Part shown: positions 40,388-54,144 of the stretch, one piece after another
Numbering within the stretch: position 1 is the first letter of the stretch
Layout: each line of letters opens with the position of its first letter
Assembly: GCA_965220325.1 (NCBI GenBank)
Contig: OZ244821.1
Coordinates: 3,037,924 to 3,101,923, forward strand
Reading direction: 5' to 3'
DNA from: Candidatus Poribacteria bacterium
GTDB taxonomy: Bacteria; Poribacteria; WGA-4E; WGA-3G
Length of the DNA: 64,000 nt
Position numbers and translations under genes: made by a program
The notes under the pieces: generated by a model
What the model was told of the DNA's origin: nothing
Database searches by the model: none
The model's input: only the letters and a program-made list of their open reading frames with translations

Positions 40388-41263
40388 ATGAGAGACTATT
40401 ACGAAATCCTCGGCGTAGATCGAGGTGCTACTCCAGAAGAAATCAAAAAAGCCTATCGCAAACTCGCGGTCCGGTACCATCCAGACAAAAATCCTGGCGA
40501 CAAAGCGGCAGAAGAGAAATTCAAAGAGGCATCGAACGCGTATTCAGTGCTCTCTGACCCGGAAAAGCGACGCGTCTACGATACACGCGGGCACGCTGGC
40601 GTTCACGGGATGGGATTTGAAGGCTACCAGAATATGAACGACATCTTCACGCATATAAACTTGGACGATCTGCTCGGTCGCGGGTTCGGTGGCTTCGGCG
40701 GGTTCGGTAGATTCGACGACGCGTTCGGTGATGCCTTCGGACAGCGGCGCGCAACGACGCCGACTCGTGGACGCGACATCCGTATGAACCTAAGCGTTCC
40801 ATTCACAGATGCCGTATTAGGTGGAAAGAAAGAGGTAAACGTGCAAGGAAAACGGATCACGCTCACGATTCCGCCCGGGATACAGGACGGGAAAACGCTA
40901 CGTATCCGCGGACACGGAGAGACACATCGCAGCGGTGTCGCTGGGGACCTGTTGGTGACGGTCGCTGTCCAGCCGCACCCGACACTGATACGTGATGGCG
41001 CGGACCTCTTGACGGATGCAAAGATATCCATGACAACGGCAGCATTAGGTGGTTCCGTCCGGGTGAAGACGTTAACGGGTGATGTGGATTTAAAGGTGCC
41101 GGCGGGTGCGCAACCCGGGCAACAACTCCGTCTACGTGGACAGGGTGCAACAGATGCCTCCGGACGAAAAGGCGATCTGCGGGTCCGGTTGGTCGTGGAG
41201 ATTCCGAAATCGCTGTCCCGTAAACAGCGAAACCTCCTGAAAGAGCTCGACAAGACGCTATGA
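40388..41263 (+). CDS. DnaJ-class J-domain chaperone without a zinc-finger domain (CbpA-like type II)
   Basis: J domain DYYEILGV...YHPDKN. A G/F-rich linker [13 protein letters not shown]-terminal DnaJ_C beta domains. No CxxCxGxG repeats. Confidence 0.8.
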
Positions 41264-42219
41264 GAACAACATCTTCTGAATCCGATGCTCCACAATCATC
41301 AAGTGGACAATTTGATACTGTATCAAAACGCATTATTCAACAAGATCCGGAGGACTGGGTCCGGTTTGTGCTCGGCATACCCGAGGCTAAGGTTATTGAG
41401 ATTTTAGATACGGAGCAGCCGACTGTTAGAGGACATCGTGCCGACAGTTTTATACGTGTGGATATCCTCGGTCAAGAGGCTATCATGCATTTTGAGTTTC
41501 AGACGCGCGATAGTACGCTGATCCCGATGCCATACCGTGTGGTAGGCTACGCTGGTAGAGGTATTGAAACTTTTCAAATACCTGTCTATTCGCATGTTAT
41601 CTATCTGCATCCGGATGCTGGACGCAATGATCCAGGGGAATACATCCAAGACATGCCGGGGCATGAAATTACGATCAAATATAAGGTGATTAGACTCTGC
41701 AAAATTAAAGGACAAGACGTTTTGGATGCGAAATTGAAGGGGTTAATTCCTTTCGCACCGCTGATGAAGTCACCAGAGGCAATGGATTCTAATGAATGGT
41801 TGCGAGAGTGTATCCGGGTCGCTGATACTTTACCTATGGATGAACCGGATAAACCTGATTATCTTGCAAGTTTGGCGATTTTGGGTGGTTTAATATTGGA
41901 CTATCAAACCATTCGTGGAATTATATCGGAGGAAACTATGTACGAATCATCTGTTATTCAACACTTCACGGAACAAGGCATTGAACAAGGCATTGAACAA
42001 GGCATTGAACAAGGCATTGAACAAGGCGAAAGAAAGGGTGTTCTTGAATCTCTGCTGGATATATTAGAAAGTCAGTTTCAGCATAGTGAGGTGCAAACAC
42101 TAAAGCCGACACTCGAGCGTATTGAGGAATTACAGGACCTCAGGCAATTGCTGCGTGAGGCACTTCAAGTGAAAAGCCTTGATGAATTCAAAACCCTTTT
42201 GGCATCAAATGGAAGTTGA
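41260..42219 (+). CDS. Rpn-family recombination-promoting nuclease / putative transposase (PD-(D/E)XK, YhgA-like) with a C-terminal DUF4351-like region
   Basis: HFEFQTRD ... [11 protein letters not shown]-terminal pattern of the Transposase_31/Rpn family. The C-terminal (EQGI)n plus helical tail resembles DUF4351. Confidence 0.55.
41971..42027 (+). repeat. Perfect 12-bp tandem repeat (GAACAAGGCATT) x4.75 inside the Rpn-family gene, encoding (EQGI)n
   Basis: Read from the sequence. Confidence 0.9.
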
Positions 42220-42680: not shown

Positions 42681-43868
42681 ATGATCTCATTATCACAACG
42701 GAGTCAAAACGTTACACCGTCGTCCACTTTGGCGATCACCGCGAAGATTAACGCGCTGATCGCTGATGGCGTGGATGTTGTCAAATTCGGGGCAGGTGAA
42801 CCCGATTTCGACACACCTGATTATATCAAAGCAGCCGCAATCGCCGCACTTGACGCAGGCTTTACAAAATACACACCCGTCCCCGGTACCCCTGAACTCC
42901 GAGAGGCGGTCACGGAGAAATTCAAACGCGATAACGGATTAGATTATAAACTGTCCGAGGTTATCGTCTCCTGCGGTGCCAAGCATACTATCTATAACAT
43001 CTTCCAAGCGATCTGCGATCCGGGTGACGAAGTCATCCTCGCCGCACCGTATTGGGTTAGTTACCCAGAGCAGATTAAACTTGCAGGCGCAGTGCCGAGC
43101 GTCATTGAAACGACACCGGCACAGAACTTCTGCATGACCCCCGATCAGGTTGCAGCAGCGATCACTTCAAAAACGAAAGCGATCCTTGTTAACAGTCCGA
43201 GCAACCCGACCGGCACCACCTACGATGTGGACACGCTCAAGGCGATCGCTGACCTCGCCGTTAAGCATCAGGTCTACCTCATCTCCGATGAAATTTATGA
43301 GGCACTGCTCTACGAGGGTGCGTCGCACCAGAGTCCTGCCTCTTTCAACGAGGAGACGAAAGCGATTACCTTCGTTGTCAATGGTGTTTCTAAAGCTTAC
43401 TCGATGACAGGATGGCGGATCGGGTATACAGCGGGTCCCGAAGATGTGGTCTCGGCGATGTCGCGTATCCAATCGCACAGCACTTCAAACCCGACATCTA
43501 TTGCACAGAAAGCCGCTGTCGTTGCTTTGAATGAACCGCAGGATGCTGTTGAAGAGATGCGAAAAGCGTTTGAGGAACGCCGTGATGTGATCTGTCAACG
43601 CTTCGACGAGATCAATGGGGTCAGTTATGTCAAGCCACAGGGTGCGTTCTACATCTTCCCCGATTTCTCTGAACATTACGGCAGAACGATTAATGGACAA
43701 AAGATAGAGGGTTCAATGGATATTACCGACTATCTGCTCAGTTCGGCGGGTGTCGGCGTTGTGCCGGGCAACGGGTTCGGTGCGGATAACCATTTGCGTC
43801 TCTCATTTGCTACATCGTTGACAGAGATTAACCGTGGATTAGATCGGATTAAGAAAGCGTTGGCATAA
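42681..43868 (+). CDS. aspC: Class I pyridoxal-phosphate-dependent aminotransferase (aspartate aminotransferase family)
   Basis: RBS AAGGAG. SKAYSMTGWRIGY PLP-lysine motif. Typical length of 395 aa. Confidence 0.8.
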   Translation: MISLSQRSQNVTPSSTLAITAKINALIADGVDVVKFGAGEPDFDTPDYIKAAAIAALDAGFTKYTPVPGTPELREAVTEKFKRDNGLDYKLSEVIVSCGAKHTIYNIFQAICDPGDEVILAAPYWVSYPEQIKLAGAVPSVIETTPAQNFCMTPDQVAAAITSKTKAILVNSPSNPTGTTYDVDTLKAIADLAVKHQVYLISDEIYEALLYEGASHQSPASFNEETKAITFVVNGVSKAYSMTGWRIGYTAGPEDVVSAMSRIQSHSTSNPTSIAQKAAVVALNEPQDAVEEMRKAFEERRDVICQRFDEINGVSYVKPQGAFYIFPDFSEHYGRTINGQKIEGSMDITDYLLSSAGVGVVPGNGFGADNHLRLSFATSLTEINRGLDRIKKALA

Positions 43869-43885
43869 CGTTACTTTTTCTTGTA

Positions 43886-43915
43886 GGGCGGGGTTTCTGT
43901 GCCCCGCCATTGTCT
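43886..43915 (+). terminator. Putative intrinsic terminator after aspC (GGGCGGGG-loop-CCCCGCC, weak U-tract)
   Basis: GC hairpin 18 nt after the aspC stop. The tail ATTGTCTG is T-poor. Confidence 0.4.
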
Positions 43916-43978
43916 GAATGCTCGTCGCATTTGGGCGAGTACGCCGCAAATCTCGGATTTGCGCGGATTACACTGAGC

Positions 43979-45346
43979 ATGAACGTCAAAAACCGAACCA
44001 TCTTCTCAAACGACAACCTACCCGTCCTGCGCGGCATCGACACTGAATCCGTCGATCTGATCTATCTTGACCCGCCGTTCAATTCCAATCGGAACTACGC
44101 AGCACCCATCGGCAGCGAGGCAGCAGGCGCAGCCTTCAAAGATACATGGATGCTGTCCGATGTAGACAACGCATGGCACGGCGAAATAGCTGATCGTGAA
44201 CCCGCTTTGTATCAGGCGATACACGCAGCCGAGCTCACACACGGTAAGGGCATGAAGTCTTACCTTATCATGATGGCCGTGCGGTTATTAGAGATGCAGC
44301 GCGTCTTGAAAAAGACAGGGAATATCTATCTGCATTGCGACCCGACTGCAAGCCATTATCTCAAAACGCTTATGGATAGTGTGTTTGGAAAGAACAACTT
44401 TAAGAATGAGATTGTGTGGAATTCGGCAACGGGCGCTAAAAATAATGTCAAAACTCGTTTTGGTAGAGGACATGACATTATATTCTTCTACGGAATGCCC
44501 AAATCTAAATTCAATGTTCAATATGAGCCGCTGAGCGAAGAGTATCTGAAATCGCATTATACTTATACAGACGGAGATGGGCGACGTTTTCGTGCGGATA
44601 ACTTGAATGCGCCAAGCACTGATGGGCATCGCTATGAATTTCTGGGCGTTACAAGAAATTGGAGAATGACAGAAGAACAAGCACACCGATGGTTAGCCGA
44701 GGGGCGTATCGTACATCAAAGCATCACGCCAGGGTCTCGTGTCAGGATTCCGAGTTATAAACGCTACGCGGATGAATCTCTGGGTCGTCCTGCCTTGGAT
44801 AATTGGACAGATATAGGTGCCCTCAATTCTCAAGCAAAAGAATCCATCGGTTACCCCACCCAAAAACCTGTTGCTTTATTGGAGCGCATCATCAAAGCAA
44901 GCAGTAATAAAGATGACATCGTATTAGATCCGTTCTGTGGGTGTGCTACAACGTGCGTCGCAGCGGAACGGCTACAACGACAATGGATCGGTATTGACAT
45001 ATCACCCAAAGCCGTTAACCTTGTCTGTGTGAGGTTAGAAGCTGAGGTCGGAATCTTCGGAGAAGTCATCCACCTCACGGACATCCCCAAACGGAGTGAG
45101 AAACTACCCAATTACCGCACCCATAAACATACGTTATACGGTCAGCAGGAAGGCTTATGTAACGGGTGTAGAACACAATTTCCGTTTAGAAACATGACAG
45201 TTGATCACATCGTGCCACAATCGCAAGGCGGCACCGACTACGAGGATAACCTACAACTCCTTTGCGGTGCTTGCAACTCTACGAAGGAACGAGGCACACA
45301 AGCCGAGCTGATTTCACGACTAAAAGCCCAAGGCGTTTTACACTAA
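43979..45346 (+). CDS. Beta-class DNA amino-methyltransferase (DPPF motif IV before DPFCGCATT motif I) fused to a C-terminal HNH endonuclease domain
   Basis: IYLDPPFNSNRNY (N6-adenine/N4-cytosine MTase motif IV), DPFCGCATTCVAA (motif I), C-terminal CNGC...DHIVPQSQGG...NLQLLCGACN (HNH). ATG chosen after the aspC terminator. The ORF track's longer start overlaps the terminator. Confidence 0.75.
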   Translation: MNVKNRTIFSNDNLPVLRGIDTESVDLIYLDPPFNSNRNYAAPIGSEAAGAAFKDTWMLSDVDNAWHGEIADREPALYQAIHAAELTHGKGMKSYLIMMAVRLLEMQRVLKKTGNIYLHCDPTASHYLKTLMDSVFGKNNFKNEIVWNSATGAKNNVKTRFGRGHDIIFFYGMPKSKFNVQYEPLSEEYLKSHYTYTDGDGRRFRADNLNAPSTDGHRYEFLGVTRNWRMTEEQAHRWLAEGRIVHQSITPGSRVRIPSYKRYADESLGRPALDNWTDIGALNSQAKESIGYPTQKPVALLERIIKASSNKDDIVLDPFCGCATTCVAAERLQRQWIGIDISPKAVNLVCVRLEAEVGIFGEVIHLTDIPKRSEKLPNYRTHKHTLYGQQEGLCNGCRTQFPFRNMTVDHIVPQSQGGTDYEDNLQLLCGACNSTKERGTQAELISRLKAQGVLH

Positions 45347-45371
45347 TTGCCTTATAAAAGGAGACACTATC

Positions 45372-47102
45372 ATGCCAGAGCAGAATACACCGAACCTCGT
45401 TTTCGTGATCACTGACGACCAAGGCTACGGCGATTTGGGGTGTACCGGAAATCCGGTTATCAATACACCGAATCTCGACGCGCTCGCGGGACAGAGCGTG
45501 CAACTACAGAATCTGCACGTCGGTCCCACTTGTTCGCCGACACGCGCCGGAATTATGACGGGACACTATTGTAACTCTACAGGCGTGTGGCACACCATCG
45601 GTGGACGCTCACTCCTCCGTAGTGACGAGGTCACAATGGCAGATATTTTCCGGCGCAACGGTTATAAGACTGGTATGTTCGGTAAGTGGCACCTCGGCGA
45701 CAACTACCCGTTCCGTCCACACGACAGAGGCTTTGACGAAGCACTCTATCACGGCGGTGGCGGTATCAGTCAGACCCCGGATTATTGGGGCAACGACTAT
45801 TTCGATGACACCTATTTCCGAAACGGCTCTGAACAACCCTTCGATGGTTACTGCACGGATGTCTGGTTCCAAGAGGCGATGGCGTTTATTGAGCGGCAGG
45901 TTGACGGCGATCAGAACCGTCCGTTCTTCTGTTATCTCTCTACAAATGCCCCACACGGTCCGTTCCGTGTTCCTGACGCTTACAGCGAAGTCTATCGTAG
46001 GAAAGAGGTACCGAGGGACCGCTCGAATTTCTACGGTATGATTACTAATATTGACGACAATATGGCGCGATTGCGGCACCATCTTCGGGTCTTGGGAATT
46101 GAGGAAAACACAATCCTCATCTTCATGACCGATAACGGTACCGCGGCGGGATGCGATCTCGGTGAAGGACAATTCGTCAAGTCCGGATATAACGCCGGTA
46201 TGCGCGGCAAGAAAGGATCGCCTTATGAAGGTGGACACCGCGTACCGCTCTTTATGCATTGGCCCGGCGGAGGGTTCACCGAAAAGCAAGAGGTCCACGA
46301 ATTGACCGCAAATATCGATCTCCTTCCGACATTGATAGACCTCTGCGACCTTGAGATTTCCGAAAACACGACTTTTCACGGTACAAGCCTGGCTCCGCTG
46401 TTGAGAAACGAGACAGAGACCTGGGAAGAACGGGTTATTGTGACCGATTCGCAGCGCGTCGAAAACCCAATTAAGTGGAAAGATAGCGCGACGATGTCGC
46501 AACGGTGGCGACTTATTAACGGGAAAGAACTCTACGATATTCAGGCAGATCCCGGACAAGAACGCGACATCGCCAACGAACATCTAGAGGTTGTCGCAGA
46601 ACTCCGAGAGCATTACGAAACGTGGTGGAAATTGGTCTCAAGACGTTTTGATGAGGACTGTCCGATTGTCGTCGGCACGCAAAGCGAACCCGTTACCTGT
46701 ATCACAACACACGATTGGCACGGTGAGAGACACGCGTGGAATCAGGGGAGTATCCGTCGCGGTATGGAGTGTAACGGCTATTGGGCTATTGAGATACCTG
46801 AAGATGGGGCGTATAGTTTTGAATTGCGCCGCTGGCCCTACGCCGAAGATAGAGCAATAACGGACGGTATTCCGGGTGAGCCTATTGACCTCTACAACGG
46901 TGGGAAGGCGTTGGCACTCACAACAGCACAAATCCGCGTCGGAGATCAGGCAGCAACACAAGCCATTGCACCGGATGCAAAAGGCGTGACGTTTACGTTC
47001 AACCTCACTGCTGGTCAGACACGTCTTCACACGGAATTGACCGATGAAACGGGTGAATTGGCAGTTGGCGCGTATTATGTGTATGCAAAACGGGTGATCT
47101 AA
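45372..47102 (+). CDS. Sulfatase (arylsulfatase family, formylglycine-dependent)
   Basis: CSPTRAGIMTGHY (C-x-P-x-R FGly motif), GKWHLG, and the N-terminal VFVITDDQG metal-binding motif. RBS AAAGGAG. Confidence 0.85.
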   Translation: MPEQNTPNLVFVITDDQGYGDLGCTGNPVINTPNLDALAGQSVQLQNLHVGPTCSPTRAGIMTGHYCNSTGVWHTIGGRSLLRSDEVTMADIFRRNGYKTGMFGKWHLGDNYPFRPHDRGFDEALYHGGGGISQTPDYWGNDYFDDTYFRNGSEQPFDGYCTDVWFQEAMAFIERQVDGDQNRPFFCYLSTNAPHGPFRVPDAYSEVYRRKEVPRDRSNFYGMITNIDDNMARLRHHLRVLGIEENTILIFMTDNGTAAGCDLGEGQFVKSGYNAGMRGKKGSPYEGGHRVPLFMHWPGGGFTEKQEVHELTANIDLLPTLIDLCDLEISENTTFHGTSLAPLLRNETETWEERVIVTDSQRVENPIKWKDSATMSQRWRLINGKELYDIQADPGQERDIANEHLEVVAELREHYETWWKLVSRRFDEDCPIVVGTQSEPVTCITTHDWHGERHAWNQGSIRRGMECNGYWAIEIPEDGAYSFELRRWPYAEDRAITDGIPGEPIDLYNGGKALALTTAQIRVGDQAATQAIAPDAKGVTFTFNLTAGQTRLHTELTDETGELAVGAYYVYAKRVI

Positions 47103-53865: not shown

Positions 53866-54144
53866 GGGTGTGTAAATATTTTGTCAATTGTCGTCTGAAT
53901 ACAAGTCGCTTATGGTATTTCTGCGGATTTCTTCAAGTCCGCCGCAAATCTCGGATTTTCACAAATTGGGAAATACTTGGCGATCGAGCTCGTTAGGGCG
54001 CAAGCTAACAGCATACGCTACAAAAGAGCAGTTCTTATCGAAGAGAGACTCTTAGGTTGTTGGGTTCGTTAGGGCGCAAGCTAACAGCGGACGCTACAAA
54101 AGATGATATGCTACAAAATCGCGCACCAAAAACTTTACACACTC
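53866..54144. mobile_element. MITE-like internally deleted derivative of the adjacent ISKra4-family IS (IS-end-like inverted repeats, no transposase)
   Basis: Left end GGGTGTGTAAATATTTTG resembles the IS left IR GGGTGTGTAAAGTTTTTGG. Right end CCAAAAACTTTACACAC equals the IS right IR. The interior contains two copies of CGTTAGGGCGCAAGCTAACAGC. Confidence 0.4.

Follow-up and report, generated by a model that had tools for sequence, protein, structure and literature searches.

A Poribacterial fusion of a beta-class DNA methyltransferase and an HNH nuclease with an exchangeable recognition domain as a candidate single-chain restriction-modification enzyme

A gene from Candidatus Poribacteria encodes, in one chain, a beta-class DNA methyltransferase and a C-terminal HNH nuclease, and alignment with its relatives identifies it as a mosaic in which a conserved framework surrounds a swappable recognition cassette (TRD). 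The gene lies in a 64,000-nt stretch of contig OZ244821.1, the whole of which is referred to here as the window (Table 1). We lean, slightly beyond an even chance, toward a product that acts as a stand-alone single-chain restriction-modification (R-M) enzyme, with one TRD directing both activities. This self-contained reading is the best fit because the active sites are invariant, the HNH segment is under selection, TRDs are swapped, the nuclease is substituted in some relatives, and no partner gene is conserved.

Table 1. Coordinates, in window positions, of the fusion gene, its segments, and its flanking features.
Feature	Position	Strand	Remarks
Methyltransferase-HNH fusion gene, complete	43979..45346	+	ORF; 455 aa plus stop
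5' framework, N-terminal catalytic lobe	43979..44419	+	residues 1-147; holds DPPF; conserved
TRD type T1, swappable cassette	44420..44846	+	about residues 148-289; unalignable to L001/L003/L007/L012
3' framework, methyltransferase part	44847..45073	+	residues 290-365; GYPTQKP motif and DPFCGCATT
Linker and HNH nuclease domain	45074..45343	+	residues 366-455; Pfam HNH nt 45158-45292
Class I/II aminotransferase, upstream syntenic anchor	42681..43868	+	Pfam Aminotran_1_2, E 2.5e-82
Spacer, aminotransferase to fusion gene	43869..43978	+	about 110 nt; strongly structured as RNA
Sulfatase, downstream syntenic anchor	45372..47102	+	Pfam Sulfatase, E 1.4e-56

The reading frame stays open without interruption to its end on the + strand. 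We take the ATG at 43979 to be the true start because orthologous proteins all begin MNV[KQ]NRT and DNA homology with four related loci sets in exactly there; a TTG at 43910, the upstream alternative, is not conserved. Both halves score above their Pfam cutoffs: N6_N4_Mtase (PF01555) at residues 25-348 (152.7 bits, cutoff 26.7, E 1.8e-44) and HNH (PF01844) at residues 394-438 (48.7 bits, cutoff 21.4, E 8e-13), the latter region also matching HNH_5 (residues 394-447, 45.7 bits, cutoff 27.5). An AlphaFold2 model of the fusion protein has a pLDDT of 92.5 and a pTM of 0.88. The motifs follow the beta-class order: DPPF, motif IV (residues 31-34, nt 44069-44080), lies N-terminal to the AdoMet-binding motif I, whose sequence is DPFCGCATT (residues 317-325, nt 44927-44953), and the TRD falls in between. 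The original prediction, of an in-frame fusion with beta-class motif order, was thus correct on both points. The Asp in DPPF, together with matches that are stronger for adenine than for N4C enzymes, suggests that the target base is probably adenine-N6 (m6A).

The nuclease half had also been predicted to be intact, and its residues bear this out. The HNH signature comprises C394-x2-C397, D409-H410, N424, and C429-x2-C432-N433, with the predicted catalytic D409-H410 encoded at nt 45203-45208. In an 80-sequence family alignment, whose identities extend down to 38%, C394, C397, D409, H410, N424, C429, C432, and K436 are invariant; N433, the only catalytic or zinc-binding residue to vary, is conserved in ≥90% of the sequences. 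The same alignment leaves P32, P33, D121, and W147 invariant in the 5' framework and T294, K296, P297, D317, F319, G321, and T324 invariant in the 3' framework. The dN/dS values of the HNH segment (0.03-0.10) are as low as those of the methyltransferase lobes (0.02-0.06 for the 5' framework and 0.06-0.09 for the methyltransferase part of the 3' framework), and by this measure the segment is under strong purifying selection. The invariant D-H and N, together with the dN/dS range, favor catalysis over mere DNA binding. They also count against an account that we consider unlikely while giving it some weight, namely that the protein is a solitary (orphan) methyltransferase whose main task is to mark the host chromosome epigenetically, with an HNH domain in a non-restriction role, for instance nicking strands at marked sites during repair or recombination, or chiefly binding DNA.

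The mosaic structure is evident at the nucleotide level. The 5' framework is 83-87% identical to the syntenic copies L001 and L003 and 79-85% identical to the non-syntenic L007 and L012, and the methyltransferase part of the 3' framework is 83-84% identical to L001 and L003. Between breakpoints at 44419/44420 and 44846/44847, DNA alignment to all four is lost. The T1 TRD shares 14-36% amino acid identity with other TRDs on the same framework versus 83-89% with TRDs in diverged frameworks. The identity pattern is reciprocal, with a framework like that of L001 and a TRD like that of L004/L005, the latter two being 80-87% identical to the window gene in TRD nucleotides and only 52-70% in the framework. 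Ten unrelated TRD types occur on one framework cluster (≥80% identical), and T1 is found in eight framework clusters; copies that carry it in diverged frameworks sit on phage- or plasmid-like contigs. In another phylum, locus L059 holds four tandem genes whose frameworks are 95-100% identical and which carry three TRD types. A phase-variable or shufflon gene was ruled out, as a search in and around the gene found no tandem repeats, simple-sequence repeats, or meaningful inverted repeats.

TRD turnover bears on the orphan account from both sides. Housekeeping orphan methyltransferases of the Dam and CcrM type keep one specificity across a clade; here, in contrast, 10 TRD types share one framework, and the TRD changes at the syntenic locus too. 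However, the phasevarion literature describes TRD allele turnover also in Type III mod genes that are epigenetic regulators with an inactive Res. Variable TRDs are therefore compatible with a regulatory methyltransferase, and swapping alone is no proof of restriction.

The fusion gene lies between aminotransferase and sulfatase genes, as originally stated, and the flanking ORFs include no adjoining restriction, specificity, or Vsr gene, again in line with the original prediction. The aminotransferase gene is 81-82% identical and collinear in L001 and L003, the sulfatase gene is collinear in L001, L003, and L008, and the locus as a whole is syntenic in related Poribacteria (L001, L002, L003, and L008). 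The spacer upstream of the fusion gene has an RNA folding energy of -47 kcal/mol (z = -3.9), and a GC-rich hairpin within it (43886-43908) occurs once in the window. Where the window has only this spacer, L001, L003, and L008 carry a TPR-repeat gene, which may be accompanied by a Gp49/HTH_37 pair; by this comparison, the spacer marks a site at which related genomes have a variable cassette. Within this lineage of Poribacteria, the gene occupies a stable chromosomal locus where only the TRD cassette turns over. This stable position between housekeeping genes is a point for the orphan account, as is the window itself, in which the neighbors are metabolic genes and no defense island surrounds the fusion; these metabolic surroundings also weigh against the R-M reading. 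An ORF at 41260-42219 had been called an Rpn nuclease gene, a label that did not survive: it has no Pfam match, its score of only 20 bits against TIGR01784 (cutoff 52.1) falls on a low-complexity EQGI repeat, and the syntenic locus L001 lacks it. With the family assignment unsupported and the gene missing in L001, a functional link was rejected.

The original prediction had also offered a phage origin, as a prophage remnant or a phage-derived anti-defense enzyme, and both versions now appear highly improbable. Methyltransferase-only relatives are common in phages, and the diverged fusions on phage- or plasmid-like contigs share the T1 TRD. Nevertheless, the locus is syntenic between its two anchors, its GC content is local (0.478 vs 0.487 for the window), and no integrase, phage, or att features were seen in the flanks within the window. 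On synteny, composition, and the lack of phage genes, a prophage remnant or recent insertion was rejected. The phage relatives, moreover, are without HNH: comparing only the best 80 matches of each scan, the HNH region is covered by 73 of 80 genome relatives and by 0 of 80 viral ones, and cultured phages and plasmids match the methyltransferase part only.

Methyltransferase-HNH fusions were described at the outset as uncommon. We find instead that, among the 150 nearest representatives of clusters at 50% identity, at least 113 have the fusion, and that it is spread over many phyla. The top representative, P0145, is a giant protein of 1598 aa, a triple methyltransferase without HNH, and is uninformative for the fusion. 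In several close relatives (P0265, P0269, L124, L151, and the L023 neighbor), Mrr_cat, a PD-(D/E)xK nuclease domain, replaces HNH, a substitution that points to a generic DNA-cutting module and counts against the orphan account. Short HNH ORFs retrieved by querying with HNH alone follow truncated methyltransferase ORFs in insertion-sequence-rich regions; they look like decayed fusions, and naturally split methyltransferase and HNH gene pairs were rejected. Because database records give the family members no name beyond "DNA methyltransferase" or "hypothetical protein", the nuclease half is invisible in annotation, and our literature search found no paper that characterizes the methyltransferase-HNH fusion architecture. 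From sequence comparison, the family appears to be large and uncharacterized, to occur in sponge-associated microbes, and to combine two fixed active sites with a swapped TRD.

Partner genes were sought by all-against-all clustering of the ORFs within 4 kb of the family members at 88 loci. Across these loci, no partner gene was conserved and no helicase family recurred. The commonest neighbors were IS1595 transposases (14/88 loci) and further family methyltransferase genes (11/88); as only these recur, a conserved partner was rejected. Some copies have defense or mobile genes as neighbors, a point for the R-M reading: HEPN_AbiU2, a C5 methyltransferase with a GHKL ATPase, and an integrase at L005, as well as an adjoining HSDR_N/SNase nuclease at L007. 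Family members occur in multiple copies, in tandem, beside insertion sequences, or in decayed form, which is the behavior of mobile defense genes and a further point against an orphan methyltransferase.

The same mobility invites a second alternative, in which the module is selfish and its HNH domain serves as a homing or addiction nuclease that cuts genomes or alleles without the cognate methylation, with gene retention or TRD gene conversion, rather than phage defense, as the outcome. Identities to Chloroflexota, Binatia, and Rhodobacter copies (57-60%) exceed those to some within-phylum paralogues (48-55%), and TRD exchange is rampant. The IS1595 transposases are also consistent with such a module, as are the copies on phage- or plasmid-like contigs, one of which adjoins a GIY-YIG homing endonuclease. 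Yet the gene in the window and its orthologues have been retained by vertical descent at one locus that lacks mobility genes, and neither a target site nor a homing scar was found. Furthermore, this proposal amounts to an R-M system seen as an addiction module and so overlaps the self-contained R-M reading. On balance, we consider a selfish module rather improbable as a separate explanation.

Under the preferred R-M reading, the enzyme would join two parts: a beta-class methyltransferase that resembles Type III Mod and has its TRD in the center, and a zinc-finger HNH nuclease tethered at the C terminus. The TRD would recognize a short DNA sequence, the methyltransferase would use AdoMet to mark host sites, and the tethered HNH domain would nick or cut near unmodified sites on incoming DNA. 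His410 is the predicted general base, with Asp409, Asn424, and Asn433 as likely metal ligands and Cys394, Cys397, Cys429, and Cys432 as likely zinc ligands. A double-strand break could arise through two protomers, or through enzymes at neighboring sites. Since one TRD would direct both activities, recombination in the conserved segments on either side could exchange it while protection and attack stay coupled. A covalently tethered nuclease would have to spare newly replicated host sites, which is a point against the R-M reading.

A broader proposal, which we advance tentatively and with rather less than half of our credence, is that these proteins form a distinct single-chain R-M class, in which a Mod-like beta-class methyltransferase without a Res partner carries at its C terminus a nuclease of the HNH (or Mrr) type. 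Its TRD pool would be interchangeable across phyla, apparently including an archaeon, in sponge microbiomes and mobile elements. The Poribacteria locus would serve as a fixed chromosomal landing pad at which the recognition cassette alone turns over, and mobile elements with the same TRD type as their host could escape restriction via matching methylation.

If active, the enzyme would represent a new combined R-M architecture (beta-class methyltransferase, central TRD, C-terminal HNH) that is re-programmable via one domain, bearing on R-M evolution and offering a possible source of programmable nicking or cutting specificities. Enrichment of R-M genes in sponge symbionts has been reported (PMC9531527, PMC5099237); an active fusion would give that enrichment a concrete basis, and TRD types common to phyla and mobile elements would provide a tractable gene-flow marker in the sponge community. 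Should the nuclease instead serve repair or recombination, site-specific methylation would be tied to strand nicking, a link not described before.

The HNH domain shares the CxxC...DH...N...CxxC(N/H) beta-beta-alpha-metal core of the Gme HNH nicking endonuclease (Gmet_0936, 4h9d; sequence E 2.7e-5, fold E 3.4e-4), McrA, and the Cas9 HNH domain. These nucleases are stand-alone or rely on another targeting module, whereas here the methyltransferase and TRD would do the targeting. As the Gme enzyme, the closest HNH relative with a solved structure, is a nickase, cleavage of both strands cannot be taken for granted, and this kinship is a further point for the orphan account. Membership in the broad McrA/Cas9-type zinc-finger group, with weak sequence matches to McrA (6ghc, E 0.006) and Cas9 HNH, also raises the idea of a modification-dependent (Type IV-like, McrA-style) nuclease that cuts foreign-methylated DNA and is joined to a methyltransferase of other specificity. 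We regard this as very unlikely: the McrA and Cas9 matches are generic to HNH, no SRA, EVE, winged helix, RAMA, or McrA N-terminal domain was detected, and the methyltransferase's own TRD is the sole DNA-reading element. The methyl-directed cleavage raised in the original prediction likewise gains no specific support.

For the methyltransferase core, Foldseek assigns a probability of 1.00 to EcoP15I Mod, M.BceJIV, CcrM, M.MboIIA, and M.RsrI. The solitary enzymes among these (CcrM, M.MboIIA, M.BceJIV, and M.RsrI) are homologous in the core and without a nuclease domain. Phage methyltransferases such as Streptomyces phage Hippo gp48 and Mycobacterium phage Dori gp42 align with residues 8-371, a span that takes in the TRD, at 42-46% identity and likewise have no nuclease domain. 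The best fold matches come from Type III systems, namely the Mod subunits of EcoP15I (4zcf), H. pylori (6k0w), and Mbo45V (7dsu), with Foldseek E values of 3e-18 to 7e-18. The likeness extends to the beta class, a DPPY/F motif IV ahead of motif I, and a central TRD, and, as in Type III mod alleles, conserved ends flank a replaceable center. Unlike those alleles, the window gene has no simple-sequence repeats for phase variation. It also has no adjacent res gene (an SF2 helicase plus nuclease), nor is one conserved in the 88 loci, which ruled out a Type III system; its nuclease is instead a small HNH domain fused to the methyltransferase itself. PADLOC returned nothing beyond generic methyltransferase models of Types II and III, the MTase_III matches (E 1e-37 to 1e-17) ranking below the best of the MTase_II models, and a known defense system was rejected on this result.

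A further parallel is with the Type IIG/IIC/IIL enzymes (such as MmeI, BpuSI, and DrdV), which combine nuclease, methyltransferase, and TRD in one polypeptide. As in these enzymes, the fusion family diversifies via TRD exchange, and with a single TRD in the polypeptide, altering it would redirect methylation and cleavage together. Characterized members combine an N-terminal PD-(D/E)xK nuclease, a gamma-class methyltransferase, and a C-terminal TRD. Here, in contrast, a beta-class methyltransferase (IV...TRD...I) is followed by a C-terminal HNH domain, or by Mrr_cat in some relatives. The original option of a self-contained, type IIG-like restriction enzyme is the one that the comparative evidence favors. 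The difference in layout places the fusion outside the MmeI-like lineage, although it may still work like an MmeI-like enzyme.

The methyltransferase–HNH fusion named in the original prediction is real: one unbroken ORF in the window encodes a 455-aa product in which the Pfam domains N6_N4_Mtase (residues 25-348; 152.7 bits, cutoff 26.7) and HNH (residues 394-438; 48.7 bits, cutoff 21.4) both score above cutoff, as does HNH_5 (45.7 bits, cutoff 27.5). DPPF (residues 31-34) precedes DPFCGCATT (317-325), an order that makes the methyltransferase beta-class. The ATG start was also correct, as MNV[KQ]NRT opens every orthologue and nucleotide homology begins exactly at 43979 against the syntenic loci L001, L003 and L008 and the non-syntenic L007 and L012. 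Among solved structures, the methyltransferase matched M.MboIIA, M.BceJIV, CcrM and the Type III Mod subunits of H. pylori and EcoP15I in sequence, while the C-terminus matched the Geobacter Gme HNH protein and Cas9 HNH domains. An AlphaFold2 model built from an 80-sequence alignment was confident along its whole length (pLDDT 92.5, pTM 0.88), with EcoP15I Mod (E 3e-18) and H. pylori Mod as nearest folds and the Gme HNH nicking endonuclease matching its last domain. The DPPF motif, together with stronger matches to enzymes that act on adenine, makes adenine the probable target base. In PADLOC, only methyltransferase models of a generic kind (Type II and III) matched.

The gene's neighbours are an aminotransferase and a sulfatase, as predicted. 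For the ORF further upstream, the name Rpn nuclease is not supported: it has no Pfam match, its TIGR01784 score is 20 bits (cutoff 52.1) within a low-complexity repeat, and syntenic locus L001 lacks it, carrying a DUF433 gene instead. Same-site relatives in other Poribacteria chromosomes (P0065 at L001/L002, P0090 at L003) are just 67-68% identical overall and share the order aminotransferase, variable cassette, fusion, sulfatase. In L001, L003 and L008, the cassette holds a TPR-repeat gene whose repeats vary in number and whose C-terminus (...QDFQKALSLAQETGD) is conserved, accompanied in L003 by a toxin-antitoxin-like Gp49/HTH_37 pair; about 110 nt are left in the window. This spacer folds as RNA into three hairpins (-47 kcal/mol, z = -3.9), and 19 nt of it recur elsewhere in the window. 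Fusion and window match in GC (0.478 vs 0.487). The conserved locus in other Poribacteria and this matching GC therefore exclude the suggested prophage remnant, or a recent insertion; the fusion is a resident chromosomal gene. A prophage-related or anti-defence role finds little support and is scarcely credible.

Coordinates of the fusion gene, its surroundings and related loci
Feature	Location	Strand	Remark
Fusion gene	window 43979-45346	+	methyltransferase–HNH
319-aa ORF with (EQGI)n repeat	window 41260-42219	+	sub-threshold TIGR01784 match confined to repeat
Aminotransferase	window 42681-43868		upstream neighbour
Sulfatase	window 45372-47102		downstream neighbour
Variable spot	window 43869-43978; L001 6773-7940; L003 5944-7845; L008 upstream of 1577		aminotransferase-fusion gap
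19-nt spacer repeat	window 53940-53958		second occurrence
Small defence island	L005 9444-15477		plasmid- or phage-like contig
Tandem fusion array	L059 5959-11879		Flammeovirgaceae MAG CBDATB010000013.1
Mrr_cat/NA-iREase1 fusion	L023 11018-12712	-	HNH replaced
Mrr_cat/NA-iREase1 fusion	L124 6001-7500		HNH replaced
Mrr_cat/NA-iREase1 fusion	L151 6001-7400		HNH replaced
IS1595 transposase	L081 7721-8800		near fusion
Fragmented copies	L168 3756-5321; L169 3797-5309		separate short ORFs
HSDR_N_2/SNase protein	L007 7056-7967		upstream of fusion copy
Archaeal relative	L082 6001-7440		Nitrosopumilus sp. MAG OZ242041.1

Our main new finding is that this gene is a mosaic whose recognition domain can be swapped. 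For comparison, the protein was split into an N lobe (1-148), the target recognition domain (TRD, 149-288), a C-terminal methyltransferase lobe (289-365) and the HNH segment (366-455), the conserved parts on either side of the TRD being the framework. Segment by segment, matches were similar throughout, or had a framework 82-94% identical but a TRD just 14-36% identical, or had a TRD 83-89% identical but a framework just 58-69% and an HNH 43-68% identical. A single framework cluster (81 sequences at ≥80% identity) carries ten TRD types of 94-164 aa, and the window's type occurs in eight framework clusters. Compared with L001 and L003 at the nucleotide level, the window is 83-87% identical over 43979-44419 and 83-84% over 44847-45347, with no alignment over 44420-44846; the fusion framework equals or betters the flanking aminotransferase (81-82%) and sulfatase (75-79%). 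Two contigs sharing the window's TRD type, L004 and L005, gave the reciprocal pattern (TRD about 80-87%, framework 52-70%). L004 is a phage-like contig that encodes tape-measure-like proteins and a GIY-YIG homing endonuclease; L005 (36,955 bp; its name suffix suggests a circular contig) carries genes for a helicase and a RuvC-like resolvase. Behind the L005 fusion lie HEPN_AbiU2, an integrase, and a C5 methyltransferase paired with a GHKL-ATPase/SduA_C-like protein, so that this mobile element with the window's TRD type bears a small defence island. The design recurs in another phylum: at L059, a Flammeovirgaceae MAG carries four tandem fusion genes about 130 bp apart, with frameworks 95-100% identical and three TRD types (23-35% identical). 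Two of these types are visibly similar to T2 and T4 of Poribacteria, and the third and fourth genes are duplicates at 98% identity. TRD gene conversion would seem to have a ready substrate in this array.

Among 80 aligned sequences with identities as low as 38%, the columns that never varied coincide with the functional ones: P32/P33 (DPPF), D121, W147, T294/K296/P297 and D317/F319/G321/T324 (motif I) in the methyltransferase, and C394, C397, D409, H410, N424, C429, C432 and K436 in the HNH. The catalytic D409, H410 and N424 and all four cysteines, for which an alignment check of the HNH had been proposed, are among the invariant residues. Where dS was unsaturated, dN/dS against five orthologues or paralogues was 0.03-0.10 for the HNH segment, with the N lobe at 0.02-0.06 and the C-terminal methyltransferase lobe at 0.06-0.09, indicating that the nuclease part is under strong purifying selection. 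A Type IV-like nuclease finds little support and is very unlikely. The main rival reading gives the fusion a function outside defence, epigenetic or otherwise, in which the HNH would act in repair or recombination; a stable setting among housekeeping genes and the nickase relative of the HNH speak for it, and we regard it as possible though unlikely.

The architecture, thought uncommon at first, is common. Among the best 120 matches in a 5.8-billion-protein search (64-100% identity; the few named sources being Candidatus Poribacteria), all except one 402-aa protein had both domains. An exhaustive search of 1.84 billion cluster representatives gave 3775 at E ≤ 1e-30, and the complete CxxC...DH...N...CxxC(N/H) motif was present in 107 of the best 150; ten long motif-negative representatives had an HNH above the Pfam cutoff (six), a marginal one (one), Mrr_cat of the PD-(D/E)xK type instead (two) or an unassigned tail (one). 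Species-representative genomes contain at least 591 relatives. The best 80 of these fall in Poribacteria, Chloroflexota (Caldilineaceae, Dehalococcoidia), Acidobacteriota, Latescibacterota, Binatia, Alpha- and Gammaproteobacteria, Spirochaetia, Rhodothermales, Bacteroidota and one Nitrosopumilus, and in 73 the alignment reaches through the HNH region. Because cross-phylum identity (57-60%) exceeds that of several Poribacteria paralogues (48-55%), these comparisons point to horizontal transfer. The archaeal relative (39% identity over query residues 2-436) suggests possible cross-domain transfer. Two genomes hold at least two copies each: OY762444.1 (L010, L078) and OZ244889.1 (L003, L012). Many relatives bear sponge-derived MAG names, and isolate prefixes other than 'jk18x...bins' are presumably sponge MAGs as well. 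The 'jk18x...bins' MAGs come from Caribbean Ircinia, in a study that describes Type II and III restriction-modification components as enriched (PMC9531527).

The nuclease itself can be exchanged. On the same methyltransferase framework, a C-terminal Mrr_cat/NA-iREase1 domain (PD-(D/E)xK) replaces HNH in L023, L124, L151, P0265 and P0269; in L023, a gene of this type and a methyltransferase-HNH gene are separated by 3.5 kb. None of the best 80 IMG/VR relatives has HNH; all are methyltransferase-only bar two on viral contigs, both Mrr_cat type. Matches in cultured phages and plasmids are confined to fusion residues up to about 390. The top match in the cluster-representative search, P0145 (1598 aa), has three N6_N4_Mtase domains and no HNH, apparently a framework-related triple methyltransferase fusion.

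When every ORF lying up to 4 kb from the fusion was clustered across 88 loci, no partner family proved to be conserved. The commonest neighbours were IS1595 transposases (14) and further same-family methyltransferases (11), one of them a methyltransferase-Mrr_cat fusion. The IS1595 (ISXO2-like) genes, mostly upstream and on the same strand, adjoin L015, L024, L033, L034, L037, L045, L049, L053, L057, L066, L068, L073, L074 and L081, and recur beside broken copies in L168 and L169; IS1595 may be a vehicle spreading the family. Methyltransferase and HNH parts lie in separate short ORFs in L168 and L169, and also in L055, L058, L064, L071 and L086, which could be true pseudogenes or MAG assembly frameshifts. 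Natural two-gene systems were rejected, since the HNH-only ORFs retrieved with the HNH segment directly follow truncated methyltransferase ORFs in insertion-sequence-rich regions and look like fusions that have decayed. In L007, from another Poribacteria genome, the fusion copy (TRD type T5, 406 aa) is preceded at a distance of 34 bp by a 303-aa protein bearing HSDR_N_2 and SNase nuclease domains, which may act with it locally or belong to a different system. A selfish or homing element, which overlaps mechanistically with a restriction-modification enzyme, is doubtful, a little more so than a non-defence role.

With moderate confidence, we read the fusion as a putative single-chain restriction-modification enzyme in which one TRD would direct both activities. 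Several features fit this reading together: neither active site varies, the nuclease is strongly selected and belongs to a module that can be replaced (HNH or Mrr-type), there is no partner gene, TRDs are exchanged rampantly, copies occur in tandem, in multiples, in decay or beside insertion sequences, and the best viral and cultured-phage matches are without the nuclease. The predicted protection and attack would share one TRD; free TRD exchange is not known to be tolerable unless one reader serves both, which is the case in the Type I, III and IIG families. Single-chain restriction-modification and TRD swapping are known concepts. Our literature search turned up no publication on this architecture, whether descriptive or experimental, and databases name such proteins 'DNA methyltransferase' or 'hypothetical protein'; REBASE, outside the search, may hold a predicted or characterised entry. 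As far as we found, the specific domain arrangement, how widely it occurs and the common pool of TRDs have no earlier description. In function, the fusion would resemble Type IIG/IIC enzymes, but it does not belong to the MmeI-like lineage, from which it differs in methyltransferase class, in domain order and in nuclease. The methyltransferase part is similar to the Mod subunit of Type III systems, but comes without Res.
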